From: Vicugna vicugna | Taxonomy: Eukaryota | Length of the DNA: 64,000 nt | Reading direction: 5' to 3' | Assembly: GCA_013265495.1 (NCBI GenBank) | Contig: MU057880.1 | Span: 650,527 to 714,526, forward strand | Shown: piece by piece, positions 1 through 62,220 of the stretch | How positions within the stretch are numbered: the stretch's first letter is position 1 | Layout of the letters: the number at the start of each line of letters is the position of its first letter | Notes under the pieces: model-generated | Database searches by the model: none | Seen by the model: the letters and a program-made list of their open reading frames with translations, nothing else | What the model was told of the DNA's origin: nothing | Position numbers and translations under genes: made by a program

Positions 1-2258
1 TGCTATTAGCCAAATACTAAAAGGATCTTAGTCCATCATCTCTAAACATGACTCACAATTCCTACTGGCACTAATACGTTTGCTGTGTCAGTGATCATCA
101 TGTCACACTAGCGTAGACTTCCCCATCTGTGAAGTACTTTCTCATATCTTATGCTCATTTAAGCCATAACAAACACCCTGGAAAACAGGAAAGGTACAAC
201 AGTGTGCTCTGTTTCACAAACCAGAAAAATGAAGCACAGTGAAAGCTGCCAAGGTCGCTCAAAGAGTAAGGAGTGTAGCAGCAGTGTCCCCCTCCCAGTG
301 ACTCTTCCTCATGAGAATTACAGACCCCAAAATGAGCGACAGCAGCAGAGCAACTTCAATGCCAAGGGACTTACGGCATTACCAGTCTCAATTTTTTTCT
401 CTTAGATCTTCCAAGAGATCAGATATACAATTTAACATATTGTTAATCTAACTTAAGGAAGGTTACAAGATAGACGTGTAAAACAAAAAGTTCAGAATCC
501 TGTAAAAGCAAATGTACACATACCCAAATAAAATCCAAGGCAACAAACTGAAGTCCAGGGCTTTGGAGTTCACAGTGTCATGCGTGGAATTCAGGTTTTT
601 ACTTCTGACTTGCTTCTGTGGCCTACCAAAGTCATGGTGACTGAGTAATATTTGGATCACTATGGCCTAACCACACAATTCTAGGAATCACTTGTGGCTC
701 AGTCTTAAAATAATCACGAGCCAAAGTCACATTATGCTCAAATAGTAAAAAAATAATTTCTTAAGAGTTAAATTTTAAAATTGTAACCAATTGGATCAGG
801 TCCCAACAGTATTACGTATTGAATAACCATGAGACTGGCTGACACACTTTATACATTTAAATATTTATGGAATGATACAGAATTACAAAACACCACAGAA
901 ACACAAATGCCAATAAGACAGTTTCACCTTCAAGGAATTTTAGAGTTTAAAATAGGAAATAAAGCACATTAAAAACTCTAAGACACTGATGAAAGAAATT
1001 GAAGAAGACACAAATAAAGTTGAGAGACAGTCCACGCTCATGGATTGGAAGAATACTGTGAAAATGACCACACTAAGCAAAGCAATCCACAAATTCAATG
1101 TAATCCCTATCAAAATTCCAATGACATTTTCCACAGAACTACAACAAGTAATTCTAAAATTTGTATGGGAACACAAAAAGACCCTGACTAGCCAAAACAA
1201 TCTTGAGAAAGAACAGAAAAGCTGGAGGCATCACATTCCCTGGTTTCAGAGCATATTTCAAAGCTACAATCATCAAAACAATATGGCATTGGTATAAATA
1301 CAGACACACAGATCAATGGAACAGCATAAAAGACCAGAAATAAACCCACACATACAGGGCAATTAATTTACAACAAAGGAGCCAAAAACATACAATGAAG
1401 AAAAGACAGCCTTCAACAAATGGTGCAGGGAAAACTGGACAACCACATGCGAAAGACTGAAACAAGACTATTATCTTTCACTATACACAAAAATTAACTA
1501 AACACAGACTAAAGACTTGAATGTAAGAACTGAAAACCATAAATTCCTAGAAGAAAACATAGGCAGTAACCTCCCTGGCACTGGTCTTGGTGATATTTTC
1601 AGATCTGACTCCAAAGGCATGGGAAACAAAAACAAAAATAAACAAGTGGGAATACATCAAACTAAAAAACTTCTGCCGTGAAGGAAGCCATCAACAAAAT
1701 GAAAAGGCACCCTACTGAATGGGAGAAGGTATCTACAAATTGTATATCTGATAAGGAGTTAATACCCAAAATACAAAAAGAATTCACACAACTCAACGTC
1801 AAAGAAACAAATGGGTAGAGGACTGAACAGACACTTTTCCAAGAAGATATCCAGATGGCCAACAACACATGAAAAGATGCTCAACATCACTAATCACCAG
1901 GGAAATGCAAATCAAAACCACACAGCTCTTAGGATTACTATTATCAAGAAGACAACAAATAACAAGTGTTGGCAAGGACGTGGAGAGAAGGGAACCCTCA
2001 TGTCCTGTTGGTGGGAACGTAAGTTGGTGTAGCTGCTGTGGAAGAAAGTATGGAGGTTCCTGGAAAAATTAAGAACAGAACTACCACATGACATAGCTAT
2101 TCCAATTCTGAGTTATTTATGCAAAGAATATGAAAACAATTTGAAAAAGATTTGAAAAGATATCTGCTCCCCTATGTTCACTGCAGCATTATTTATAACA
2201 GCCAAGATGTGAAAAACAACAGAATTGTCCATCAGTGGATGAATGGATAAAGAAGATG

Positions 2259-2259
<1 letters not shown>

Positions 2260-2296
<37 letters not shown>
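2260..2296. repeat. (CA)n microsatellite inside an L1
   Basis: Directly visible. Confidence 0.98.
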
Positions 2297-2301
<5 letters not shown>

Positions 2302-2479
2302 AATATTACTCAGTAAAAAAGAATGAAATCTTGCTATTTGCAACAACATGGATGAACCTTGAGGGAATTATGCTAACTGAAATAAGTCAGATGGAGGAAA
2401 GACAAATATTATATGATTTCACTTACACATAGAATCTAAAAAAACAAATGCACAAGCCAAACAAAACAAAAACAAACTG

Positions 2480-2628
2480 GCGGGAGGGTACAGCTCAGTG
2501 GTAGAGTGCATGCTTAGTATGCAGGAGGTAGGGTTCAGGCCCCAGTACCTCCATTACAAAAAATAAATGAATAAATAAACTTAATTACCTCCCTCCCATA
2601 TAAATAAATAAACAAATTAAAAAAAAAA
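2480..2628 (+). mobile_element. tRNA-Ala-derived SINE (camelid Vic-1 type) nested in an L1 3' UTR
   Basis: gggagggtacagctcagtggtagagtgcatgcttag... head, aaacttaattacctccc motif and A-tail. Confidence 0.9.
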
Positions 2629-2842
2629 CTGAGAGATACAGGGAACAGACTGGTAGTCTCAGGGTGGAAGGGAACTGGGGAGTGGAGAGCAAAATGGGTG
2701 AAGGGGGTCAACTGTGCAGTGATGAACTAAAACAAGACATAGAGTGGTGGTCACTATGCAGGGCACACAAGTATCAATGACTTTGTACACCTGAAATGTC
2801 CACAATGTCATGTCCAATTTTACCTCAATAAAAAAATAAAAT

Positions 2843-2930
2843 AATATGCATATAAATGCATGACTGAGACATTATGCTGTGCACCAGAAACTGACACACT
2901 GTGACTGACAGTACTTCAATTTTTAAAATA
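2843..2930 (+). mobile_element. Short L1 extreme 3' end in the A-tail of the preceding L1
   Basis: atgctgtgcaccagaaactgacacact...tacttcaat matches the 3' termini of the L1 copies at about 49100 and 53380. Confidence 0.7.
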
Positions 2931-3862
2931 TAAATAAATAAATAAAACAGGAGGTAAGATGTGTATACCTAATAATTATGAAACAATTACCAGAGGATAA
3001 ATGGCTTGCAGAGATGCGCAAGTTTAAAACCAGTAAAAAGCCCATAAAGAACAATTCAACCTTGGGCTCGAGTGACCAGAAGAAAGCTTCGTGGAGAAGG
3101 AAACATTTAAGCCAGTCCCTTAAAAGTGACGGGGGTAGGTGTGAGGGAGGGAGGGAGACCAGCACTGAATGGAGTCACCAGAAAGGGTAAAAATGGGAGG
3201 CGTCAGACCTGGCCAGTGGGACACTGACAGAGGCCTGAGGAGGACGGAACTTAGAAGGGAAAGAAGAGCTACCGAGGACAACAAAGGAATGTCCCCCTTC
3301 CCAAACTCCGTGGTTAGCTTCTTACAAAATCAGTTCCAACAGAGCAGCAGTTTGCCCAGAAGATCATGCAAGACGATTGTTCTCTGTGGTTACAAGGCTC
3401 ATTCTTGAAAATTACCATCCACATGAGCGGGGCCCTACTTGACAATGAGAAATGAGGCCTTGGGCTCCCCTCTGAAACACCACCCAAAGTAAGCAGGTCC
3501 ACACAGCACTGCTCTCCTTGTGCTCTCCGTCTTGCAATCAACAGAGAAAAGGAAAAACGAAGGGAAACATAAATCAGGACCTAGCCCAGAGGCAGCGCGG
3601 ACGGGGTCATTTTGAAGGTGCTCCTTTTCACAGTCAGAGGGGGGAGTGTTTATCTAGGAAATTCAGAAGAAAATGTGGAGAAATTCTTAGAATCTTCTCA
3701 AAGAGATGATAGAGATTAGCCACTTTTTTTTAAAGCCTTGGACAAGAACAAGTAAATGACATTTCACAGTAAGTCATTTCACTTATTTCATATATAAAGA
3801 AAACTGCAAGATATACAGAAGGCCAGATCTTAAGCGAAGGGTGGGATTTTTCTTATGTCTCC

Positions 3863-3913
3863 TAAAACAAAAACAAAAACAAAAACAAAAAACAAAACAA
3901 AACAAAACAAAAA
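3863..3913. repeat. (AAAAAC/AAAAC)n repeat
   Basis: Directly visible. Confidence 0.95.
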
Positions 3914-4941
3914 TGGCACCCAGCTTGACAAGTATGGCTTGCTTTCTGCCAGACTTGCAAAGATTTCTAGGAGATACTACTTTCTTTTCTCTTTCCCTCA
4001 TACTGTTCTGTCTTTTCTTTTGACCAATTTGAATATTGTTTTCCTAAAAATTGATTCAATATGTTTAATATCTACTCCCTTCCTTAAAAAAAAATCACAA
4101 ACAGAAGTGTTCAAAATACTGTACAATGCCTAAAGTTTAAATTAAATAGTTCTCGATCCTTTCCAGAGGACATTAACTGACTGTTTTCATGGATAACTTT
4201 AGAGGTAACGTCTGAAAGAATGAACACTGATTACCCTCTAAGGATAATGTACTGAAGGACAATGAACACCAGGAACATTTCTTTTGGGGAGTGAGGAGTT
4301 CTGATACTATATACATGGTAATAAGGTTTTTATCAGCATCCTCTACAAAGTTTCACTCAACGCTGGCAAAGACACTGTTGCAATTCTGGAGTAGTCAGCG
4401 TCTCCCTCCTGAACTCTGATGAAAGCAAATCCTTTCACCTGAGTAATTTTACTTCTAACTCCAAAAGTCCCATGGAATAGTCTGTTTTCTTTACTCACAC
4501 TGATACAATTCATTACCACAGATGTACAAGTTATACTCTGTCAACTGTTTAAATTCTGTCTGCGATTGCCAAGAAGTAACAGCTACTCCACAGCACCCTG
4601 CAGGAGGAAAGACTACCAACCCATGTGAGTTTCTGTTTGGATGCAAGATAAAGAAAGATAAGTAACTTAATAAAAGGTAAAGGGTTTTATCTCTGAGTCC
4701 AATTTAAAGGTTTAGATAATACGCCTACCACCATTTCTTTAAAAGATAAAGTAGCAGGCAAATAATTCTTGATTGTAAACTTAATGGAAATTAGGGTATT
4801 TCTGAGTACAGGAAGTTGATTGATTACGCAGAGCACCCAGCATGTGCCAGGGACTGGGGCCTGGTACAGCGGGTGGGCTTAAACAACTCAGTTTTGTTTT
4901 GTTTCAATAACAGAAACCTAATGTAAGAAGAGGATTTTCTT

Positions 4942-5824
4942 TTTTTTTTTTTAACATTTTTTATTGATTTATAATCATTTTACAATGTTGTGTCAAATTC
5001 CAGTGTAGAGCACAATTTTTCAGTTATACATGAACACATTTATATTCATTGTCACATTTTTTTCTCTGTGAACTACCATAAGATCTTGTGTATATTTCCC
5101 TGTGCTATACAGGATAATCTTGTTTATCTATTCTACAATTTTGAAATCCGTCTATCTCTTCCCACCCTCCGCTCCCTTGGCAACCACAAGTTTGTATTCT
5201 ATGTCTATGAGTCTATTTCTGTTTTGTATTTATGCTGTTTGTTTGTTTGTTTTTTAGGTTCCACACATGAGCAATCTCATATGGTATTTTTCTTTCTCTT
5301 TCTGGCTTACTTCACTCAGAATGACATTCTCCAGGAGCATCATGTTGCTGCAGATGGCATTATGTTGTCGGTTTTTATGCCTGAGTAGTATTCCATTGTA
5401 TAAATATACCACAGCTTCTTTATCCAGTCATCTGTTGATGGACATTTAGGCTGTTTCCATGTCTTGGCTATTGTAAATAGTGTTGCTATGAACATTGGGG
5501 TGCAGGTGTCATTTCGAAGTAGGGTTCCTTCTGGATATATGCCCAGGAGCAGGATTCCTGGGTCATATGGTAAGTCTATTCCCAGTCTTTTGAGGAATCT
5601 CCATACTGTTTTCCACAGTGGCGGCACCAAATTGCATTCCCACCAGCAGTGTAGGAGGGTTCCCCTTTCTCCGCAGCCTCTCCAGCATTTGCCATTTGTG
5701 GATTTTTGAATGATGGCCATTCTGAACGGTGTGAAGTGATACCTCATTGTAGTTTTGATTTGCATTTCTCTGATAATTAGTGATATTGAGCATTTTTTCA
5801 TGTGCCTATTGATCATTTGTATGT
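4942..5824 (-). mobile_element. Relatively young 5'-truncated L1 with target-site duplication
   Basis: A 158-aa open ORF2 C-terminal segment (5340-5816, Cys-rich domain: [19 protein letters not shown]), a poly(T) tail, and flanks atgtaagaagaggattttct (4921-4940) / atgtaggaagaggattttct (5821-5840). Confidence 0.96.
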
Positions 5825-6429
5825 AGGAAGAGGATTTTCTTAAAACTTCTCATCTAACTCTAGATTTCTTGAAAACCTAAAAAAAGGCCACAGACTCACA
5901 GAAAACCTCGAAAAAGGCCACAGTTACAAAAAAAAAAAAAAAAAGTCAGGCTGGAAAATGTATGACAACAACCTATACAAAAATACGTCCTTCCTAGGAG
6001 CAAAACTGTATGACACAGAAAAACCCTGTTGGGTGAACTTTAACAGGTGAACAATAATAAATTATACACATTATACTCAGTGTCTTTAGGACTTTCTATG
6101 AAGAGTCAATAATGCTACTGAGGAACAGAATTTCTTTTCTCCTTTCCGAGTGTATTTGTGAAGAGCACCAGGAGATACTATATTAGGATGACTAAAAGTC
6201 CAGGTCCTCTTTGGCTATACCCAGAAAGAACAAAACAATTGAAATGGGACAAGAGAGCTTTGCTTTTGCTGTGTTTAAGTAACAATGAGACTAGGCTGGG
6301 GTGTCTCTCTTCCACCTCATTTCCCTTTGGGTAAAGCTACCTCCTTAGGAAAATGATCAGACTTACAATTATAACAGACCTGTGAGATCCTTGAGCCCTG
6401 GAATCAGTTGGAAGTTCTCAGAAACGAGA

Positions 6430-6610
6430 GTCCAAGGCAAAGGACAAACCTGTTCTGTAAAGAGCCAGACAGTAAATGCTTCGGGCTCTGCAGGCCAGAC
6501 TCGGGCTCTGGCATGAAGGCAGCCTCAGACAACATGGAAAGACTGAGCCCAGCTGTGTCCCAACAAAACTTTATACAAAACAGGCTACGGGCTGAATGTG
6601 GCCCAGGGGG
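6430..6610. mobile_element. MER58A-like hAT-Charlie DNA transposon relic
   Basis: caaacc...tctgtaaagagccagacagtaaatg...gctgtgtcccaacaaaactttat...aaaacaggc matches the MER58A pattern from memory. Confidence 0.7.
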
Positions 6611-8527
6611 ATCTAGGGGGTTAAATTTTCAGCAGTTTGATGGCTCTGTCCCTGTCACATGGGGACATTCACCCAACTACTCTGGGTATTTATTTCCTCT
6701 ACTCAGAAGTCCAAACTGGACACGGGGTTTCAACATTTTTAGTGGTAAGTCTCCTCTTTCTAATAAAAATGAAGGGTGGAGGCTAAGCTAGATTTCTAGG
6801 ACCCCCCAGAGGCCCCGAGAAGCCTCCAGGTCTGTGAGACACTGAGGAAACCACTGGTCAGCTGATCCCGAAGGTTCCACTCAATGCCAAGAACCAGTGT
6901 TGGCCTCAACATCACCTCAGGCACCATCAGAAGGTGAGGGAAGCAACCTGCGGATCCTAGGCCGTTCAGATTCCTGAGAAATCACACGATCTCCTCCCAC
7001 AAAGAAGAGCAGCCTCATGACAATGTTAAAAATGACCAAAAGTACAGGCGAAAAGCAGAAGACAATGAAGTTAAAGCTAAATTCTAATCTATACGTGTAT
7101 ATAATTAAGATGTCTTTTGCTACGAATTTGCAAAAATTTTACCCAGAACAAGTTTTATGACAGGTTACTTTTTTCTAAAGTTCTATATATAATCAATAAG
7201 CAAGGTTTCAGTGCAGCATATTTAATCTGTTTCTGAAATCACCTGTTAAGAAGTTAATACATTGGCTTATAAACCATTCTACAATTTAAACATGGTCGTC
7301 ATATCTATTAAAATGGGTCAAGGCTAGGATCTCTACTCAGTAACAGTCTGCAAGTTAGTTCCAAATATTAGAGTTTAGTTTTACAAGTCTACCATTAATT
7401 TTGTTGTCCCTGATGCTAATCAAAATCTCAAATCAACAAAATTAAAAAAAAACAGATACTGCATAATATAACAAAGGTGTCACAGGATATCAGAGGAAGA
7501 ATTTACACGTATGTCTGTTAAATAACAGTCAAGCACGTAAATCACAGTCCAAAATCCCAGCACAGAAGTGATTAAACTTACAGGCAGGGGACTGCCTGAT
7601 ACTCCATAAAAACAACTTTGTTCCACAAAAGTACACATTTCTATAAGGAGGACTTGAACCAAAAGTTGCTGCCCCTTTCAGCTTTCACCCAATTCACTAC
7701 TAATATAGAAGCATACAATTACCTTTTCCCCTGTACCTCAAATTCTCAGGAAAAACAAAGACCAAGCCATGAAACATCTGCTGGCTCCGGTTCTGTGCTG
7801 CAGAGCACACCAAGTCCTGGGCTCAGACACGACTGGAAGCCCCAGGCCAGCAGGCTCTCTAGTGAGGCTGGTGGACACAGAGCAAGTCAGTCCATTTTAA
7901 GTGAAACCAAGGCTCCAGCTTGGACTCCAAATTCAGGCATATACTACCTCCCAGCCCCCTACACACACACACACCCAAAACAATTAACTTATAGTAAAAA
8001 AAAAAGACTATTTTAAATTAAATCCCACTCTTTCCAAAAACATTTCTAGCCATTAGCTGCTGACAGCAAACTGCTTAAATGACCTAACAACACATTAAGA
8101 GCAATTTATCTACATAAATCTGGAATGCGATCATAAAAAGCCCATAAACAAACACCACGGTTGCCCTAAGGCAGGGCATGGTGCGTACTTATCTAATATC
8201 AAAGCTAGTCTTGTACAATAGCCAACAAGATTGCACTGTGTAGCGCAGGGAAATATATACAAGATGAAACCACCCTTCTTAAAGACAGAAGTTTGTAAGT
8301 ATGAATCAACAAGTTATAGAAAACTCTATTCAAACAGCTATTTGTTACCAACATTTTATACACAAACGTATATTTAGCTCTAAAAAGTGATGATTTAGCT
8401 TTTAGGAGGAATGACAAATTGAAAACTTCAAAGTCCCAGAAAAATGACAAAATATTACTACACATAGAAATTTCAGATCACAAAATTGGAGCACATTAAA
8501 AAGTTCTCAAAAAATAAGAGTAAATTT

Positions 8528-8672
8528 TTTTGTGTGTGGGGAGAGGGTAAATTAGGTTTGCTTGTTTATTTGTTTGTTTGTTTGTTTGTTTTTAGAGGAG
8601 GTACTGGGGATTGAACCCAGGACCTCATGCATTCTAGGCACGTGCTCTACCACTTGAGCTACACCCTCCCCC
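8528..8672 (-). mobile_element. tRNA-Ala-derived SINE
   Basis: A and B boxes on the minus strand, with TSD agagtaaattt at 8517-8527 and 8678-8688. Confidence 0.92.
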
Positions 8673-10571
8673 ACAACAGAGTAAATTTGAAACAAAAAGA
8701 ATTGACTTAGAACATATAAATCTACGTCTTACTTGAAATCAATACTTAAATCAATAGTCATCATGTAGAAATAATTATACTTAAAAAGTTACATTCAGTG
8801 TTTTATTTATATCTATATATAAAATTCACCCACTGGTATTTTAACCTCTATTTTCAAAGAAGAGACTGTGCTTCAGAAAATTACTAATCATACATCTAAT
8901 AAGCAAGCCAAGAAGTTGAATATGTTTATACATTATATATCTGTATTCATTTCTCCCTAACTGCGGCTAAAGGAATACAGCTGTGTAATACATTAAGACT
9001 TTCAAAGAGGTCTCCCGAGAATCACTGCATAAAATTAGGAAAACAATATCTCCTATGCAAAGTAAGTTGGACAAATACTATCAACCAACAGCACTCATCC
9101 ATCTTCATCTCCTTCTTTCCGGCCCTTCTGTAATATAGAGGCGGAAAAGGAAAATACTCAAACTGTCAAGTCTCCTAGCAACTAGGAGGAGCCACGGACA
9201 CAGCTCCAGCCAGTTGCAAGTACCTGGAGAGGGTGTTCCTTCAAAATGAAAGGCAAACTCTTTCCAAGAAAAGCATTTTCCACCTCCTCCCTTCTCTCTT
9301 CTCCCCTGCTTGGTGGTGCAGCCATCACCTTGGGACTTGGAAAACTAAAATCACTTGCCAAGTAGAGTGAGCTGGTTTTCTTAGTGACAACCTGACCATC
9401 TGCATTAACCCTGCACTGCCTAACTTTAGAGTTCTTACTGTGTGTGGAAAATAAGCCCACAGTTAAGCCTCTGTGTGTGCAGTTTCTGATAACCTGCAGA
9501 CTAATGCAAGTCTAACTCAATCCAAGCCAGGAACCAAGTCTATCAAATGGATGTATATTATAAATCACTTTGGTGAATCATAAGACATGACTGATGAAAA
9601 ATCATCTAAGGGAAAAATAAATACCAACTATTGAAAATAATACTACTAATAAAAAACGGTAAACACTCCAAAGACTGTTGAAGAACTTTAATGCACACAA
9701 ACATGTTTAATCTTCACAACCATGGGAGGCTGATATTACCACACTCACCCATGGTAAAATTTTAGCAACCCTTGACAAAAACAGAACAATATGGTGAAGG
9801 AAAGGTAAATTTACTTATTCTGAAATTATGACCTTTCTATCTTTGCAACATTAAAATGTCCTTTCTTTTATGAAATGGGGTTAGTGGGGAACAAGTTTAC
9901 ATTCATCTTTAACATGCTCACTTGGCAAAATCAACAGGTGGCAAACCAACATCAGCTCCCCAAAGTTCTGCGAAGCTTTAACAGCCCAGGAAATGCAAGG
10001 GTCTGAGCCCCACTAGCGTTAAGTGACCTGCCCAGGACCACAAAGCAGTTTGTGGTCTGGACATCAGGGTCCAGGCTCATAACCGCTATGTTAGATGAAG
10101 GAAACACACTAAATAAACTCACAATGACTACTGCATGAATACAATCAAAGACACAAATGTGTAGCTACGAAGGAAAACAGCCACCCCACCACATGCAAAG
10201 TGGGAACAAGGACTTTCAAAGGGAAATGATTCTACCATGTTGCCTCCCACAGAGTTTCCTCGAAGGGATGGAGATTTAAACCACACCAAGGAAAACGGAA
10301 TCAAGACAGGAATTCTCAGCCATTACGAGGTAGGTCTCAGATGAGCTTAGGTTCAGAGAGTCGCATCTGGGAATACAGAACTTGGGGGTTTCTGCATACC
10401 CGGTCTGCCTCTGGAAGAAGTCTGTGATTCCCCAGTGGAAGGAGCAGGGAGGTCCTCAACAATGTTCCCCCTACAGCCAGCTCCTCGGTTTACTCCGGCT
10501 CTACCAAAGCCAGGGGTCCAACATGAACAAAGCCCAGAAAAGAACTGAAATGCACTCAAATTCTTCTTTAC

Positions 10572-10586
10572 CTCAATTCTTGGCAT
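10572..10586 (-). CDS. RAPGEF2: Candidate coding tip (MPRIE) of an alternative RAPGEF2 first exon
   Basis: cctaagATG CCA AGA ATT GAG|GTAAAG has A at -3 and a phase-0 donor, the same phase as the main exon 1. It ends a stretch with no recognisable transposon that starts at a TATA/Inr pair. Confidence 0.55.
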
Positions 10587-11303
10587 CTTAGGCGACTGTA
10601 TTTCAATTTTTTTTTTAACTCATGCGTTTTTCAAACTCATCTCTGGTTGTTTGGAAATGTAGCAATTTGATCAAGCATTTTCTTAATCCAACAACTAAAT
10701 CATGTAACTTGGATGGCCAAACATTTCTCACAACTCGATCAAGAATTTTCTAACAAATACGAGTGTGCTTAAAAGAAAGCAGAGTTTGTAAGACTGCATA
10801 ATGTAGCTTAGAGAAGAAATCAGAAACCTACTGCCTTGAAGGATTCCAACAGTTACATACAGAACAACTGGACGCATGTTAAACAGGGTTGGCCAACACC
10901 TACACACTTTCACAGGTTTTATTTTATAAGATTGGAGTTGCTTCAAAGTCGGGCCAGCTGTTTCCTTTTTCACAGGCGCCCTCAGATGCAAATTGTTATC
11001 AAAAACATCAAACAGAAAAAATCTTATTAAAATATAGAAAATAAATGGTTTTATCTTTACAATTGAAAATAGTAAGGATCTTCCAGCTTTAACTTATCTG
11101 TAGTTATCTGAAACATCAGGGCCCATATTTTTCAATCCAATCTTCCGGCACCAACTTCAGTAACGGGAAAAATTTTAAAAGTACACAGTATACAAAAACA
11201 GCATGCATCCTCCAGGATTTACCACACACAAAAAGAAAGGTAGGTGGCTAACGTGAGGGGGTGAGGGTTGGGGGAGACTGGCATTGTAACTGAAATGCAA
11301 CAG

Positions 11304-11384
11304 TGTATATATATATATACATATATATATGTATATATATATATATATATACACACATACACACACACACATACACATATATAT
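11304..11384. repeat. Compound (TA)n/(CA)n microsatellite
   Basis: Directly visible. It lies inside the candidate alternative first exon. Confidence 0.97.
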
Positions 11385-11534
11385 AAAAATATAAAATCAG
11401 TTCAAGGTAGAAATCTCTCTACAAATCTTTTTTTATATATATAAATTTTTTTTAATTCTTTTTTTTTCCTTTTTAGAGCCTGGTAGGACAAGTGCAGAGG
11501 AAAGAACTGCACACACGGCCAGAAGGTGCCATCC

Positions 11535-11620
11535 TCAGATGCAGCAGAGCCTCTGACCAGCCCTCTTAAATACGCCCTTGCCACTCCCTTGTCTCCCTCC
11601 CACCCCCTCACTCCTACCAA
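11535..11620 (-). promoter_or_regulatory. Candidate intronic TATA/Inr core promoter
   Basis: Minus-strand GGGCG-TATTTAAG (11572-11565), with a CA initiator (A at 11540) 32 nt downstream of the first T. A GGGGGTGGG (CACCC/KLF-type) box lies just upstream. Confidence 0.5.
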
Positions 11621-12239
11621 AAGTAACGATTTGAAGAATTTTTAAGTTCACAGGAAAGGAAAAGGAGGAGGGGGAACCTGTGGACTTGATTTCGCCTAGA
11701 CTGACCGCCTTCCACCACAACCACAATTTCCTTTCTGCGGTGCTTAATGTGCATGTTGTATTTTACCTCCTACACACTTTTTCTTACAGCAAAAACTCTA
11801 ATTTACTTATACTCAGGATCATGAAACATTCACAACTGGTAAAATACACTGCATCTTGTGAATATCTACAAAATTCAGATGGGAATAAGGGTTAAATAGT
11901 TAAAAGTTACTGTTTCAGCTCTTCTTGTCCATTGTTTAGAAGCTTGTGTGTATATGTATTTTAAATTTCCTCTAATATATTGCTTTAACCATGTCACTAA
12001 TGGTCCAAGGCATACAAATATTTAGCTAAAAGGCACTGAGCTCTTCATTAAGATTAAAGATTAAATCATTAATCAGGAAAAAGGTTTTTTTTAATATCTT
12101 AATTTGGTAGCCCCTCTTCAGTCACAATAAAACCCTAAAAGCTATGTGGTTTTTTACTTTTAATTCTAAAAGTACTTTAGACTAAAAAAGTTATTTAAAA
12201 AAATAGTTCAGAGATCCTATATATGCTTTATGCAGCTGC

Positions 12240-19100: not shown

Positions 19101-20438
19101 TAAAACAAACAGCAGATGAAGAAGGCACAGCAGAGGCAGGGCAACAAGGTCAAAACAGGACATTCTTTGTTTTTGACAAAACAATACTGCAGAAAAGGAA
19201 TTTTCTGGAGTCACTGTGAAATGAATTTTCTTGTAAAACTATCACCCATCTTCCACACGTTTGGTAAATATGTGCAATCTACCCATCATCCCCAGATGTG
19301 ATGGCTCTGCCAGAAAAAAAAATCAAGAATCAAAAACGGTACCAGGTGCCACTCCTGGGCCTTGTCCAAAGACAGACAGTGGAAGATGCTATGTTATTCT
19401 GTTCTCCCTGCATTAAATAATAACAATCAACGTCAGAGAAGCAGAGCATTTGGATGTGAACAGATGGCATCTAACACCTAACAAGCAAAGCAACTCTTTC
19501 AAGCACTAGATCCTAAATGTCTGATGGTCCCAAGGATCAGGAGGGCTTATTTGTCTTAAGACGGTTGGCAGCGGGATGCCCTGGAGTCACTATCCCCACG
19601 CTTAGGAACGTGCGTCATTATCCAGCCAGCCACTAAAAGCAAAAAAGTAAAATAAAATAAAACCACCACATTTTTGTAAAATTTCCCCCTTCAAGTCCAA
19701 CTTCAGACGATCAAATCCAAAACCATCAGCAATTCCTCCACTTCAAGCAAGGGAAAAAATAAGCCTGAAGGTAAACGAACGCATAAAATTAACAAACTTA
19801 TCTAATTTTGACGGGGTTGTGCAACAGCGAAAGAATCCGCAGGGTGCCCTTCCCGGGGGTGTATCTGAATCTGTCTGCTCTGCAGTTGCCTGCGATTGAA
19901 ACTAAACCCAAGAACCGAGCGGTTCAACTTTTCCCCCTCTTCGTTAGAAAGCATCAGCCCTTTCTCCAAAAAGCAAAATAGCAAATATACCAACATCTCA
20001 ACGCTGTATGCCGAAGGCCACCACGGATCTGTCTTTGGTAGAAGCCCTGCAAGTTTCCTCCTCTACCTCTGCGGACACCAGGGAACTCTGGAAGGTGGAC
20101 GGGGCCGCAAGCACTGGGTAGGGAGCCTGCGACCAGGCTGGCAGGAGGGGCCGGCCAGGGGAGGTGACCACCCTCTCCCCACCAGAGGCTCACAGGCCCG
20201 ACGCTTGGCTAGAATTGGGGATGCTCGAAGGAGACTTTTCTCCTCCGCGGTGGGAAGGTCAGCTGCGGCGAAAAGAAGATCTCGGAGAGGGGACCGTAAG
20301 GCCAGGATGGACAGGGGAGAAGACGCCGCGATGGGATGCCATAGGAAGTTGGGCTCCTGATGAGGAGCGGGCGCGCGGGGCGCACCGCGCGGCGGGGCGG
20401 GGGGGGCGCGGGGAGGGCGCGGCCGGCGCGGGGCTCAC

Positions 20439-20507
20439 CTGGGGGGTGCTCTCGGCCGGGTTCTTCATCACCGCCTGGCGGAAGCTGTTATCCACGTAGG
20501 ACGCCAT
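20439..20507 (-). CDS. RAPGEF2: First coding exon of the long isoform of Rap guanine nucleotide exchange factor 2 (PDZ-GEF1)
   Basis: The minus strand reads gagATGgcg... and encodes MASYVDNSFRQAVMKNPAESTPQ (69 nt, 23 codons), followed directly by a CAG|GTGAGC phase-0 donor. This matches the N-terminus I recall for long RAPGEF2 isoforms (MASYVDNSFRQAVMKNPPERTPQ|DLEIVYSY...). It lies in a CpG island with good Kozak context. Confidence 0.92.
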
Positions 20508-21049
20508 CTCCCCCCGCGGCCCGGGCCGGGGCCGCTTCGCGCCCTCGGCCGCCTCACGAGGGTCCCAGCGGCGCCCGACGCTCCCCGCTTCCTCTGCGCC
20601 GCTCAGCCGGGCAAGCGCCCTCCGGGCTCGGGTCGACACGCCTCCCCGGCTCCCCTCGGGGCAGGCGGCGGCTCCTCCCGGCCCCGGCGGGCCTGAGCTA
20701 TTTTTAGGGAGCTTCGAGTGACGGGGAGGGGGAGGCTGCGGGCGCTCTGGCCTCCTTGCCCTCTTCTCGGGGCTCCGGGCGGCACTCGGGCGCCGCGGCC
20801 GCCGTCGGAGGACGCTCAGGTCCGGGCGCTGCCCAGCCGCGGGGCCTCGGCCGCCGTCCGCGCCGCGCCGGAAACTTTGTTCCCGGTCTGCGCGGGGCGT
20901 GGGAGGGAAGGGGCCGCGGGCGGCCGGCTCCGGACTCCCAGCAGCGGGCGTCGCGCACAGCCCCCCGGAGAGTGTTTGGGAAGCGGCGACTCCCCTCCTC
21001 TTCCCCGCCTCTTCCTCCTCCTGCGCCTCGGCGGCCGCCCCGCCGCTCC

Positions 21050-21097
21050 TCAGGGAGGAAGCGGCCTCCGGGGCCGGTCGCTTTGTGCTGCAACCAT
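21050..21097 (-). CDS. Candidate 15-aa uORF (MVAAQSDRPRRPLPP) in the RAPGEF2 leader
   Basis: ACCATGG optimal Kozak context, 16 codons to TGA. It is a uORF only if the transcription start lies upstream of 21097. Confidence 0.35.
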   Translation of the reverse strand: MVAAQSDRPRRPLPP

Positions 21098-21195
21098 GGT
21101 GAAGGGTGAGTGACAGGCCGGCGGCCAGTCGGCGCGCGCCGCGTCGGCGGGGGCGGGGCGTCCCGGGGCCGGTCCCCGCCCCCGGCGCCCCCCCG

Positions 21196-21227
21196 NNNNN
21201 NNNNNNNNNNNNNNNNNNNNNNNNNNN
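21196..21227. other. Assembly gap (32 N)
   Basis: Run of N inside the GC-richest part of the CpG island. Confidence 1.
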
Positions 21228-22569
21228 CGCCCGCCGGCCGCGCCCCGGGCACCGGGGCCGCACCTTCCGCGGCGGCGCCCAGGTGAGCCGCGAGCCAGGG
21301 CCGTCGAGGAGGGTTGCAGCGCCCCCGGCCGGAGCGGCTGGGGCCCCGCACCGCCTGGCCTGGAGGAGGCGGCATCCTGGCGCCCGGGCGGAAGGCGCAG
21401 GGCTCTCCGCTCCCCGCTCCCCGCTCCCCACCCCTTCCCCAGCGCGCGCCGCGCCCCCTGCCCACAGCCCACGCCGGGCCCCGGGGGACCCTGCAGCGTC
21501 GCGTCGCCTCGCCTCGCCAGACTCCTCCTGGCGCCAGGCCTCGGCCGCCGGGGCTGCAAGTTGACCCGGAACAGAGGTCCGGCCCGCAGCTTGAGCCGCA
21601 CTGGGCATTCTTTTGGAACCCAGGGTGGGTCCCAAGATGCTTCAGAAGCGAGAAATCCTCTAAGGATGAATTTTGCCTATTTGTAACTTGCCGCAGGGAA
21701 AACATTCCTCTCCTGCGTTCCGTGCACATCCGGCACCTCCAGACACTTAAATGAGCACGAAACGAAGGAGATGGAAATGTGCCAGTTTCAACACTAGACC
21801 AAATACCACCCTTGGACAGGCAGATAGTCCAGATTTAAAGGTGGTCGGTCTTCTGCGCGAGACCTGGACAGCAAGTTCTGTGACATCATCAGAAACACAG
21901 GCAGATGTGGTTTCGCGTTGGGCATAACAAACCTCCAGACCCCACATCCAAGCTGGACTCACGTGGTGCGGGGAACGCTAGGACGTAGCCCTTTAAAATG
22001 TCACCGCTCCTCCCCCTCCCTCTCTGAGCCGGGTCGAGGTGTGTAAGGACAGCCAAGCAGCGGGAACCGCTCTGGTGTTCTGGTCCTAGGGGCTTACTTT
22101 TATCTGCTTCCCCTTGCCCCGTCTCCAACAAGTTCATGTTTGTTGTCTGTATCCAGCCATACTTAGGGGAGGATTGTTACTTGTATGACCTACTACGTGG
22201 AACTTTTTTCAGATTTCCGAACGTACTTTTTCAACATCTAGTTTGGTTTAAACACTTGGGATAGGTTATGAACAATGATTTTAGAGTCTGCAAATCACCT
22301 GTATTAAACAGAGTGTGTGGCTTCCACAAGACAGGACTGTCCCTGCCCAAATTTATGAAACTGAATCTGAGTTACAAATTGTATCTCTAGACCCTTTCTA
22401 TTACCCTTGCTCATACTGCTTCCCAGTATTTCTCTTGCACCCTTTAGCTGAGGCCCAGCATCAAATTCTTGATGGCGTAGACCATCACCTTGAAAACAAA
22501 GGAGCATGGGTATCATTACAACTCTGCGTAGAGAGAGAAGGAAAATCAAATCCAACGAAGTGAGAAAAT

Positions 22570-43764: not shown

Positions 43765-44036
43765 GTTTTTACAGGAGGAGGTAATTAGTTTTATTTATTT
43801 ACTTATTTTTTAAGTGGAGGTACTAGGAATTGAACCCAGGACCTTGTGCTGCTAGACAGGCACTCTTTCACTGAGCTACACCCTTCCTTGTCTAACTGTT
43901 CACTTAAAACAATTCTTTTTTAATTTTTGAGGGGTGGTGATCAGGTTATTTATTTATTTTAATAGAGGGACTGGGGATTGAGCCCAGGACCTCATGCATG
44001 CTAAGCGCACACTCTACCACTGAGCTACACCCTCCT
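43765..44036 (-). mobile_element. Two tandem tRNA-Ala-derived SINEs (~43765-43887 and ~43915-44036)
   Basis: Two complete antisense heads, each with the ggtaattag/ggtgatcag tail motif. Confidence 0.92.
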
Positions 44037-48482: not shown

Positions 48483-49156
48483 ACTATGGAAAACAGTATG
48501 AAGCTTCCTTAAAACATTAAAAATAGATTTACCATATGATCCAGCAATCCCACTCCTGGGCATGTATCTGGAGGAAACTCTAATCTGAAAAAAATACATG
48601 CACCCCAATGTTCACAGCAGCACTATTTACAATAGCCAAGGCATGGAAGCAACTGAAATGTCCATCAACAGAGGACTGGATAAAGAAGCTGTGACATATA
48701 TATATATATATATATATATAAATGGAATAAATACTCTCAGCCATAAAAAAGAAATAAATATTGCCATTTGCAGCAACATGGATGGATCTAGAGATTATCA
48801 TACTAAATCAGTCAGAGAGAGACAAATATCACACGATATCACTTACGTGTGGAATTTAATAAATGATACAAATGAACTTATTTACAGAACAGAAACAGAC
48901 TCATAGACATAGAAAACGTGTGGTTACCAAAGGGGAAAGGTTGGGGGAGGGATAAATTCGGAGTTTGGGATTAGCAGGTACAAACAAAAGATACATATAA
49001 AATAGATAAACAACAAGGATTTACTGTATAACACGGGAAACTATATTCAATATCTTGTATAATGGAAAAGAATCAGAAAAATAGTATGTGTATAACTGAA
49101 TCACGTTGCTGTGCACATGAAACTAACACAATATTGTAAATCAACTTCAGTTTAAA
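48483..49156 (+). mobile_element. 5'-truncated L1 with TSD
   Basis: cactatggaaaacagtatg...ccatatgatccagcaatcccactcctgggc..., with flanks aaaatagtagctgatac (48466-48482) / aaaatagtgactgatac (49157-49173). Confidence 0.95.
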
Positions 49157-49259
49157 AAAATAGTGACTGATACCACTAAGAAGGAAAAACAGAGCAACTT
49201 AAATTGCTTTTGCAGCGAAAGCAGTTGTCTTAGTTTCAAATCCATGTTACCAATGCTTT

Positions 49260-50053
49260 CTAGGCCGCAGCAGCCGGGCAGGGACCAGTCGAGGCATGAC
49301 TACTTGGAAGCAGTAAAAATCGCGTCTTGTGTGCGTTCCTCGCGTTGGAATCGCCGAGCCCGTTTCTCTGCCCCGGCGGGGCAGCGGGCGGCCGGGGTCC
49401 TCCCGGCGCCTGCGGGCGAGCGCGGTGCTTCCCCGCCGCTGCTGCTGGCTTCCCCGGTGGCGCCCGCCTCGCCGGTCCTGGGAGCCGGTGTTGGGCCCTC
49501 GCTCCCCGCAGCGCCGTGCTCCCCGTCGGCGCTAAGACATCCGCCTTTCCCAGAGGGAAGACCTCGGTTTCCGTGGCGCCCCTGGTGTTTCATTTCTGTC
49601 TTTTATGTACCCAGTTCTGACAAGCCCGTCATTTGGTTCAAAGGATTCATGGGGGACCCTGCTCCACACCTCTCCCCCCTTTGCGAACAAGTGTCTTGGG
49701 ATACAACCAAGGGCTAGCCGTGTCCCCGGTCTCGGGGTGGGGGTGGGGGATAGGCAAGTGTCTGTATCGCGGGGAAGGGGGGCTGAAGTGTCCGGGTGTG
49801 GGGGCTGAGGGTCCCCAGGGGACAGGGGACAGAGGCGTGGGCCTGGGGCCGCAGCCAGGGCCTTGTGCTGCGGGGGGCTCGCCCAGCAGAGGCCAGACTC
49901 CAGGGCCCTGCCTTTCATCTGTGGTTTTCTGGCTGTATTTCTTTCCCCCAACTTGTCCCGCATAGTGGTCTATTCAGATATATTGCGTGCACTTAATCCT
50001 ACTCCGCCGGGGGGGAGGGGTTGCACAGGGTGGAAGCATTGCACAGGTGAGTT
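49260..50053 (+). promoter_or_regulatory. Orphan CpG-rich region, possibly a promoter or first exon
   Basis: High CpG density at 49260-49570, G-tracts at 49734-49783, and a consensus donor CAG|GTGAGT at 50047. Confidence 0.45.
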
Positions 50054-51111
50054 TGTGTTAGTCGGTTTGCTCTGCACGGGATTGAACCCCAGCATGCACT
50101 ATGCACTTTGCACCTCCCTGGTCCCCCACAGTCCCTTGGGTTTGTCAGGGTCAACAGCCCGGACCAGATGTAACCGTGCAGAACATGCTTATCTTTCCGG
50201 TCTATACCGTCTCACCCACTGTTCCTTTTTCAAGCCGCCTGTGTTATTTAGTCTCTTCCAGTGTCTGGGGGTAGCGGTCTTCCCTGCTGGGGACCCAACT
50301 CCAAACCCTGGGCTTCTGGTTCCGGGCCCTCGGACAGTGGGTCACATCCGCACGGGTGCTGGGCTGTCGACGCTGTTCCAGGATCCTTTTCAATCCCTGA
50401 CTTGGCAGCCTTCAAAGATCCTCAGGTCCACCTTGTCTGGATCTCCTTGGACTGACCGGGGAGCCCTGCCCTGCTGCCCCCATGAGGCCTTTGTCCCTCT
50501 TTGTCCCATCCTGTTGTTGAACCCCTTGCTAAAGTCCATCTTCTCTCTCTGGCCTGGCTGGTGAAGTTGGAAATCTGTCTTGGTTCTTTATATGGCAAGT
50601 GCAGAACAGACTCGATTCCTCCTGGAAATTAACATGGCCCACCCAGTGCTGGGGCGCTATGCTCAGTGATCAGGCCCTGCAGGAGTCTCTGAGTCCCCAG
50701 GTGTATTGGGATTCTCTGGCCGGTGCTCTGTGCACCTGGGGGACCCCTGAGCCTCACCTGGACCTCCGTGGACCTCAGAATGACTGGAGAGGATGCCCTC
50801 GTGCTTCTCTCATCCCAAAGACCCTCTGAGGTCAGCCCCACAGACAAGCACGTGGCATTTGTACCCCTCTCCTGGGGAGGGAAGGACAGCACCTGCTGCC
50901 CCCAACCCATCTGCTGGAAGCCAGTCCCCCACGTCTCCTCAGTGAGCGGCTGCGGGGTCTCCCCTCCCAGCACCAAGGTTACCTCCCCACAGGGTCCCAG
51001 GTGTGCTCTCACAAAACTCATCTGTGTTTTAAAGTCGACTCTTAGCAACTTCCACAGCATGTTGAACATATTTGACCCCATATTTGATCACTCCTAGACT
51101 CACACTGGTTC

Positions 51112-52573: not shown

Positions 52574-52700
52574 GGGGAGGGTGGAGCGCAGTGGTGGAGT
52601 GCATGCTTAGCATGCATGAGGTCCTGGGTTCAATCCCCAGTGCGTCCATTAAATAATAAATAAGTAAACCTAATTACTTCCTCCTCCAAAAAAGAAAAAC
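52574..52700 (+). mobile_element. tRNA-Ala-derived SINE with a long TSD
   Basis: Head, aaacctaattac motif, and a 33-34 bp flanking direct repeat. Confidence 0.92.
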
Positions 52701-55887: not shown

Positions 55888-55982
55888 TTTATTTATGTTT
55901 TATTTAATGGAGGTACTGGGGATTGAACCTGGGACCTCGTGCATGCTAAGCACGCGCTCTACCACTCAGCCATACTCTCACC
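55888..55982 (-). mobile_element. tRNA-Ala-derived SINE
   Basis: tggaggtactggggattgaacctgggacctcgtgcatgctaagcacgcgctctaccactcagccatac. Confidence 0.92.
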
Positions 55983-60035: not shown

Positions 60036-60212
60036 GGGCGGGGGGAGCTCAGCGGGAGAGCAGGTGCTTAGCATGCATGAGGTCCTGGGTTCAATCCCCA
60101 GTCCCTCCATTAAAAATTTTTTTTTAAATAAATACAACCTGATTATCCCCCCAAATAAATAAATGAAAAATAAAACTCATCTCAAAAAAGAATACCCCCC
60201 CCAAATTTTTTT
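60036..60212 (+). mobile_element. tRNA-Ala-derived SINE with an extended tail
   Basis: agctcagcgggagagcaggtgcttagcatgcatgaggtcctgggttcaatccccagtccctcca, with flanks agagctatttgttgca / aaagctacttatttca. Confidence 0.9.
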
Positions 60213-60629
60213 AAAGCTACTTATTTCAGAGCATTCAGGAAATCAGTAAAGATGTCTGAGACTTTTGTGTGTAGTGAACGAACATAAAAACAAAAAGCTT
60301 AACTGGTCCAGCTGTGCCTTCTTTTTTTTTTTAAATTAAAAAAAAAAGCTAATCTATGTTAGATGTGAAATCCATTGAGTTGTGATATGTCAATGTTCCT
60401 TTTTCTTGACAGTGATTTTTTTCAGAACTCCCTCTCATTTAAAAGAAATTTACAATAGTCAGAAGACTCTTGTATTTTCTTTCTGTGAAAATCAGTGATA
60501 GGTTTTTATAAGTATAATGAATGTTTGCGATAAATCTTTGGCATCTGCAGTTTAAGTAATTCCTAAAAGCTTATGTTTTATACTTTGATGTTGAATGATT
60601 TCTTGAACTCTGATAAATTATCTCAGTTT

Positions 60630-61170
60630 TTGAAAACAACGGTTAGTTGTCTTTGCAGACAAACTTCTTTGATCGCACCTTCACAAGCAAACCGTAGGCG
60701 TTTTCAGTGACGGTCCTTTCGCAGGTGGAACGTGGGGGGAGTTTTCGGGGGCGGCCCCGCCCATTCCCCACGTGCACGTGGCTCGGCACCAACAGAAGTG
60801 CCTGCAGGAGGGAAGCAGGCTCTGAGCTCTGCGAGACCACAAAACAAAGCCCATGGCTGTGGGTCTCCTCTGGGACCCTTTCCAGGGATGAGCAGCGTGG
60901 GAAGCTCGCGCTGGGACCGCACACGACGGGCGACCGCGCTGCGCTTGCAGACCGGACCGCAGCCGGCCGGCCGCGCGCACACCTGGCGAGCACGACGCCC
61001 GTCTGGGACAGAGGCGGGTCTGTTCCCCGCCACCACGCGCTGGCGGAGGTAAGAGGATGTCCCAGGGTGCCTGAGCTAGCTCAGGGGCCCCGGAGAAGGC
61101 AAAGCAGTTCCTCTGCGGACCACAGACATCGCTGCAAGGAGCAAGCATCTCTGCACGCCAGCAGGTAAGC
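60630..61170 (+). promoter_or_regulatory. CpG-rich promoter and candidate non-coding first exon of a plus-strand gene (possibly SPMIP2/C4orf45 by synteny)
   Basis: MYB site CAACGGTTA (60637), back-to-back GC boxes (60747-60762), tandem E-box palindrome (60768-60781), and donors GAG|GTAAGA (61049) and CAG|GTAAGC (61165). Gene identity is inference only. Confidence 0.55.
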
Positions 61171-62220
61171 GTCGTCTTTTCCACGTGCTGGGAGTTAGAG
61201 CCCTTGTCACTTTTCTTCTTTGTCCATTTGTCTATTAAGTGCTACCATATCATGGTTCTCACGTGTGACCCCCCCCCCCCGTACGTTTGAACTTATTTCA
61301 GACCGTGCAGAACCTCAAGAAACGGAGGACAAAAATCACAGAACATCCCGTAGCAGGGCAGACACACTGTGGCTTCCACGGGGGCTCCAGCCTGGTTTTT
61401 AACTGCAGGGCTTGTCTGGTGGGTGCAGGGACTCTCGCTCACGGGGAGTTTTAGTTATCAAGGAGTATCTTGGTATTTTTCAGATTACCAACAGTCTGTT
61501 GTAACCTGACTCAGAGACATGACAGATAAAGAGACCAAGACAGAGCGCTGTCCCAGGCGGCGATTTCTAGGAGTGGATGATAAGCACCGGCAGATAAAAA
61601 TGCAATCAGTCAAGCCCTGGAACCTAGCAGGAATGAGAAGAATGCTTTTTCAATTTTAAAGTCTAGTGTGAATTTTGCTCTTAACAAAAATCAGAGAAAA
61701 TCAGAGGGGATTTTAAAAATACACAATAAAGGAAGAAAAGTATTACATCTATAGATGAGTAAATGCTCTTAGACAAAAATAAATGTATTTATGTATCTAT
61801 ATATTTGGGGGAGGGGCGTTTCCTTTCCTGTTAGGATTAGGTAACTTGTAGAGTAAGTTTATTTAGGAGTTGATTATTTAGTTTGTCAACAATAACAACC
61901 TATTTTTATAGCTTTTTAAACAAAACCTTTAAAATATACAAGAGTTGACGTTTGCTTTAGAAAAACGTGAATAATATTTTTAGCTTTTCTGAAGGCTGGG
62001 TTCCAGAATACTAGTGGTTTAACAGAACTGATAGGATCCTGGTCATGAAATAGGAATGCGCCAAAAGGCTCCAGAAAATACAGGAATGAAAGAGTGAGAC
62101 AACCAAATATCAGAGTCTGGGTAACTTCCAACCCTCCACCCACACCCCATCACCCACCCCACTTCTTTAAGTGATGAATCAGTCACCCAGCCCTTGATGG
62201 ATGGCACAAGAGCTGGTATT

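Follow-up and report, generated by a model that had tools for sequence, protein, structure and literature searches.

A candidate regulatory element and a likely chance ATG-donor match in intron 1 of Vicugna vicugna RAPGEF2

Introduction

Several first exons are known for RAPGEF2, and the mouse Rapgef2 leaders given in the accessible text of Jiang et al. 2017 (PMC5611689) are MAS, MIVV, MAF, MKP and MLP, with no MPR form named among them there. The same text leaves open the reason why transcripts of the 5′ exon cluster yield little protein. In the available portion of the human RAMPAGE data of Moore et al. 2022 (PMC8805725; 2 of 12 rows), ZH38T0038241 is an intronic, unannotated and splice-verified RAPGEF2 start to which 5,556 read pairs linked to exons and a further 398 local pairs are assigned. 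It stands two IDs after a verified annotated start, and its row gives no coordinates. The mouse FANTOM5 peaks in the accessible part of Table EV5 of PMC5448164 comprise a main cluster at chr3:79,286,695-79,287,346 and a narrow minus-strand peak at 79,269,757-766, ca. 17 kb into the gene. Two RAPGEF2 promoters (chr4:159,103,172 and 159,227,670) are present in the accessible rows of a human muscle CAGE promoter table (PMC9308330), 11 RAPGEF2 start rows in the available bovine RAMPAGE data (PMC8015843), and only downstream RAPGEF2 promoters in 2 of 4 rows of the PMC3017616 supplement, as far as accessible. A first-exon row from macrophages (PMC8260223, available part) was rejected as a candidate, with hg19 positions 160,162,353 versus 160,188,889, not in intron 1. 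Among the papers listed in the literature search there was no report of a RAPGEF2 intron-1 promoter, and the supplement of PMC5611689, which covers all human and mouse first exons, may bear on novelty. The matches listed in a literature search for "MPRIE" were unrelated.

The window analysed here is a 64,000-nt stretch of contig MU057880.1 of Vicugna vicugna, and positions refer to this window unless the contig is named. For a site within RAPGEF2 intron 1, the original prediction, made from the sequence, had proposed a TATA promoter and a first exon ending in a donor at 10571, which would be spliced to exon 2, so that translation from the last ATG of the new exon exchanges the 23-residue N-terminus for MPRIE.

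Gene structure of RAPGEF2

The DNA compared comprised the window and 200 kb beyond it (264 kb). The gene was identified as RAPGEF2 on the basis of the exon series, which tblastn placed in order on the contig, and of a late exon with 99% identity to a Camelus dromedarius record. Exon 1 is located on the minus strand within a CpG island (20001-22000), which has a 32-N gap (21196-21227) upstream of the exon. Other CpG-rich or GC-rich stretches upstream of RAPGEF2 are found at 49001-51000 and 60501-61500. Intron 1 covers 64,078 nt, and is followed by a 71-nt exon 2 (contig position 606886), which starts with DLEIVYSY after a normal acceptor and includes an in-frame ATG (MEALS) with G at -3 and +4. 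The distance from the candidate donor to exon 2 is 54,211 nt. According to the exon phases, the donor is of phase 0, like that of the CpG-island exon 1, and compatible with exon 2, as had been predicted.

The segment at the end of exon 1, cited in the original prediction as KNPPERTPQ, reads KNPAESTPQ in this genome. At codon 20 of the exon (20448-20450, minus strand), R is found in the Camelus bactrianus record and in almost every other vertebrate record, and the difference is either an allele or a sequencing error in the GC-rich stretch. Five tRNA-like calls (8595-8668, 43963-44035, 52579-52648, 55907-55980 and 60037-60109) are likely tRNA-derived SINE heads rather than tRNA genes, because an A-rich repeat tail is located after the call at 8595-8668. 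An Rfam search with positions 1-11590 produced a single match, which was tRNA-like.

Table 1. Positions of features at the candidate site and of RAPGEF2 exon 1 in the 64,000-nt window.
Feature	Position	Strand	Basis or remark
RUNX-type words, two (11725, 11719), and ETS-type words, three (11732, 11662, 11657)	11653-11732	-	word count
CACCC (KLF/SP-type) box GGGGTGGG	11599-11606	-	sequence
GGGCG, directly 5′ of the TATA-like word	11573-11577	-	sequence
TATA-like word TATTTAAG	11565-11572	-	top flank GC among 81 TATWWAWR words
CA initiator-like dinucleotide, proposed start	11540-11541	-	sequence; weak alone
First upstream ORF (19 codons long), its start codon flanked by A at -3 and G at +4	11473-11532	-	8 nt past the proposed start; strong context
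TA/TG microsatellite inside the proposed first exon	11300-11440		sequence and genome search
Second TATA word, TATAAAA	10922-10928	-	357 nt 5′ of the donor; one of 13 TATAAA(A/G) words in intron 1
MPRIE codons (ATG and four more), in a phase-0 frame open as far as the donor	10572-10586	-	likely chance match
Donor-like GTAAAG	10566-10571	-	score 6.6; candidate only
RAPGEF2 exon 1, coding part	20439-20507	-	23 codons, 69 coding nt; phase-0 donor at 20438; CpG island

Promoter-type motif cluster

The CACCC box, GGGCG, TATA-like word and CA initiator predicted on the minus strand were all confirmed to the nucleotide (Table 1). Core promoter motifs are present at workable spacing upstream of the candidate exon. 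Just upstream of the CACCC and TATA motifs is a cluster of RUNX-type and ETS-type words, which was absent from the original prediction.

Intron 1 contains 81 TATWWAWR words, from which 36 have CA at the initiator spacing, so that the CA dinucleotide is weak on its own; six have a GC or CACCC box, and two have both. The TATA-like word at 11572 belongs to these two, with a flank GC of 0.59. When intron 1 was divided into 400 tiles of 160 nt, the tile at 11798-11638 was the only one with at least two RUNX and at least three ETS words. The motif criteria and the tile window were chosen post hoc, and thus rank the cluster first without yielding a valid P value. With this post hoc choice, a local cluster of transcription-factor words is present at the candidate intronic enhancer or promoter. 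A second tile rich in RUNX (three) and ETS (two) words is located at 10038-10198, ca. 400 nt beyond the candidate donor.

Comparison of 10400-11585 with the 264 kb revealed no dispersed repeat and gave one self-hit only, and a genome-wide search with the same region, in which very common words were skipped, returned matches to the microsatellite only. Thus, the predicted stretch of about 970 nt without a transposon stands in respect of dispersed repeats, and leaves unmentioned the TA/TG microsatellite and 19 upstream ATGs.

Candidate MPRIE exon and its chance level

The 3′-end of the proposed first exon is exactly as predicted, with aagATG at 10586, the five codons MPRIE extending to 10572, and GTAAAG from 10571. 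The exon is 969 nt long, and nine of its 19 upstream ATGs have a purine at -3. There is no depletion of ATG within it (19 in 954 nt, against a tile mean of 14.9). Of the 20 ATGs, that of MPRIE alone is open to the donor; it carries A at -3 and matches the phase of exon 2. In scoring with a splice matrix, no other site up to 1.24 kb from the proposed start reaches the score of the donor at 10571. As many as 121 intron-1 sites score as high, however, and 18 of these are preceded by an ATG with a purine at -3 that is open in phase 0 over at most 30 codons (at most 10 codons in 10 cases). With this many pairs in 64,078 nt, the candidate ATG-donor pair does not exceed chance level. One further site in intron 1 carries the full set of TATA word, initiator, GC box and ATG-donor pair.

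The donor is in the middle of the range of 13 scored RAPGEF2 exon ends (4.1-11.1), and scores higher than that of the real MKP exon (5.5). Seven ATGs precede the start of the MKP exon over 450 nt, and a TATA-like word is absent over 600 nt, so upstream ATGs cannot exclude a first exon, and a TATA word is not the mark of real RAPGEF2 starts. Two objections to an MPRIE exon were accordingly dropped as disproofs, a weak donor, since the MKP donor is no better, and an excess of upstream ATGs, since the MKP exon is little better.

Protein records and the domain affected

The protein comparison comprised 509 distinct RAPGEF2-type records, 367 of them with exon 2, collected as the best 120 of 513, the best 120 of 667, and 8/8 matches together with cluster members. 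An MPRIE form, which the original prediction had supposed might already exist among predicted isoforms, was the start of none of the 509 among the matches listed; the large mammal clusters were sampled at 15/890 and 15/984 members, from which a rare or lineage-specific model could escape. Internal starts in these records were MKP (26), MAF (19), MIVV (18), MKTS-type (11), MEALS (6) and MLP (3), and the MKTS-type count indicates that leaders of few residues do get annotated. Other short leaders before exon 2 were seen in shark, fish, baboon and cat, one record each, with none matching the window. When unusual leaders of other mammals were mapped to the 264 kb, none of the matches listed at E<1 fell in the candidate region.

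In solved structures of Epac2, each of the two cyclic-nucleotide-binding domains opens with a segment to which the last part of exon 1 can be aligned, and this part of exon 1 is nearly invariant from sharks to mammals in the protein records. MPRIE would therefore replace part of a domain, and not a free leader. Pfam gives a sub-threshold cNMP match in the N-terminal region of RAPGEF2. The swap might harm folding of the first cyclic-nucleotide-binding-like (CNB-like) domain.

Transcripts and substitutions in a close relative

RNA-labelled contig sets from a close relative of ca. 97.5% identity, in 4 of 24 listed runs, were compared with 9500-11585; their word sharing with 10450-11250 was only 0.24-0.28. 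In the three contig sets (3/3) that cover the donor there was neither a junction nor a loose end at 10572, and position 10571 was crossed unspliced, by contigs that are strandless and possibly represent DNA, or unspliced RNA, and tissues in which the site is unused. The fourth set had no cover at 10571, and this was not counted as evidence.

Among the rows listed, the exon side (10572-11131) differed from the relative by 16 substitutions in 560 nt and the intron side by 24 in 1072 nt (P=0.5), over a range that ends short of the motif cluster and with little power at 2.5% divergence. No change was listed at the ATG or the donor, an outcome expected 59% of the time.

Metagenome scans with a degenerate TATA-region pattern gave 0 matches. 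Scans with exon 2 reduced 91 candidate stretches to 2 loci, which were genomic, with 78-83% identity confined to exon 2 and without a junction. No mammalian ortholog of the candidate region was obtained from the metagenome scans.

Alternative explanations

Of the original description, the identity of the gene, the reasoning on phase and the promoter-like appearance of the site were upheld. The MPRIE isoform was supported by none of the tests able to reveal it, although none of them is decisive. The site is a mere candidate for an alternative first coding exon, and would at best act like an internal promoter in a gene already known for several.

Tentatively, and with somewhat less than even confidence, we favour the reading that the region of about 11740-11530 may be an intronic regulatory element of RAPGEF2, either an enhancer or a weak TATA-type promoter, and that the MPRIE codons and donor are an unused chance match. 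The regulatory element is suggested by the first rank of the motif cluster in intron 1 and the lack of a dispersed repeat; the chance match by the 121 equal donors, the 18 ATG-donor pairs and the one other full motif set. On the other side stand the post hoc choice of the motif criteria, the fact that motif words do not in themselves prove function, the locally best donor and the intronic start in the human RAMPAGE data. RUNX, ETS and KLF/SP factors would bind the motif cluster and support RAPGEF2 expression in some cell type, and RNA from any initiation at the site would be for the most part short or inefficiently translated. The pairing of RUNX with ETS points to blood or immune cells, which are our best guess for the cell type.

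That the whole site is ordinary intron, and the motif cluster a chance peak picked by eye, is rather unlikely but the most serious alternative. It agrees with the presence of another complete motif set in the same intron, and with the published start-site data as far as available: both RAPGEF2 rows (2/2) of the human muscle table are elsewhere than at the candidate place (PMC9308330), and no mouse FANTOM5 peak is found between 79,269,766 and 79,286,695, which includes the proportionally expected place at ca. 10 kb (PMC5448164). The lack of constraint against the close relative in 10572-11131 points the same way, although that test did not span the motif cluster and had low power. Against ordinary intron, two separate measures, GC-flanked TATA and RUNX/ETS density, rank the site first in 64 kb.

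A real tissue-restricted promoter with an effectively non-coding first exon, spliced from 10571 or from an earlier donor (11222 or 10907) to exon 2, is an unlikely explanation. Translation would then be low, or would begin at MEALS in exon 2 and produce a protein that lacks the beginning of the first CNB-like domain. Such a promoter is consistent with the promoter-like rank of the site in intron 1 and with the sequence context of the exon 2 ATG, and six of the 509 records begin with MEALS, although these can come from gaps over exon 1. The read pairs of ZH38T0038241 that reach an annotated exon (PMC8805725, available rows) are compatible with a real intron promoter; this peak may, however, equal the known intron-4 start at chr4:159,227,670, and its 92% of spliced pairs, under a 1-kb fragment limit, would imply a short first exon and not one of 969 nt. 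Similarly, the narrow mouse peak on the minus strand speaks for an internal start, but at ca. 17 kb it is further into the gene than proportional scaling suggests (PMC5448164, accessible part). One 151-nt contig of the relative ends at 11541, which is very weak evidence of a start and was not relied upon.

It is decidedly doubtful that an intron-1 promoter driven by RUNX/ETS and TATA would act in one blood or immune cell type, producing a long form without the opening helix of the first CNB-like domain, whether through MPRIE or MEALS.

The isoform of the original prediction, in which the TATA promoter, the 969-nt exon and the splice at 10571 give MPRIE, is improbable, as its sole open and in-phase ATG, its locally best donor, their unchanged state in the relative (expected more often than not by itself) and the several first exons already used by RAPGEF2 (PMC5611689, accessible text) are set against its absence from the protein records among the matches listed, the lack of a junction in relative contigs that are possibly DNA, the upstream ATGs, the high chance rate and the cut into a conserved domain segment.

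Significance and comparison with known systems

At present, the finding chiefly illustrates how frequently an ATG and an in-phase donor coincide by chance in a long intron. One more RAPGEF2 promoter would be ordinary, because several first exons are known. If true, the intron-1 form would fall between the ubiquitous long form, for which little protein is reported, and the short form of neurons, and would allow a test of whether the long protein is suppressed by a signal in exon 1. If real, an isoform with a change in the first 23 residues only would bear on the little-protein question in the accessible text of Jiang et al. (PMC5611689) by testing whether these residues are the cause, with modest importance.

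The exon 1′ cluster of NCS-Rapgef2 (MAF, MKP and MLP; PMC5611689, available text) resembles the candidate in being part of the same gene and in having short coding leaders and phase-0 donors, with donor scores of 7.8 (MAF) and 5.5 (MKP) on either side of that of the candidate. This genome has both the MAF and the MKP exon in intact form, at contig positions 537188 and 536274 on the minus strand, 914 nt apart. They are situated ca. 124 kb further into the gene, when the candidate is in intron 1, before exon 2. According to the same text, the cluster exons are spliced to the LPAD exon and leave out the first CNB-like domain, whereas the candidate would join exon 2. The MAF and MKP exons are conserved, and their leaders are frequent in the protein records, where the MPRIE leader was not found among the matches listed. 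The candidate thus falls outside the exon 1′ cluster, being in intron 1 rather than downstream of the exons that encode the first CNB-like domain, and would not be joined to LPAD.

The MKTS-type and MIVV models (MIVV also in the accessible text of PMC5611689) are similar to the candidate as internal 5′ starts with a tiny or no coding leader, and show that leaders of 3-4 residues are annotated. These models start at exon 5 and are recorded in many mammals, unlike the candidate, which would join exon 2. The verified, unannotated intronic starts of the RAMPAGE data (PMC8805725, available rows), with at least one in human RAPGEF2, form the class which the candidate would join if it fires.
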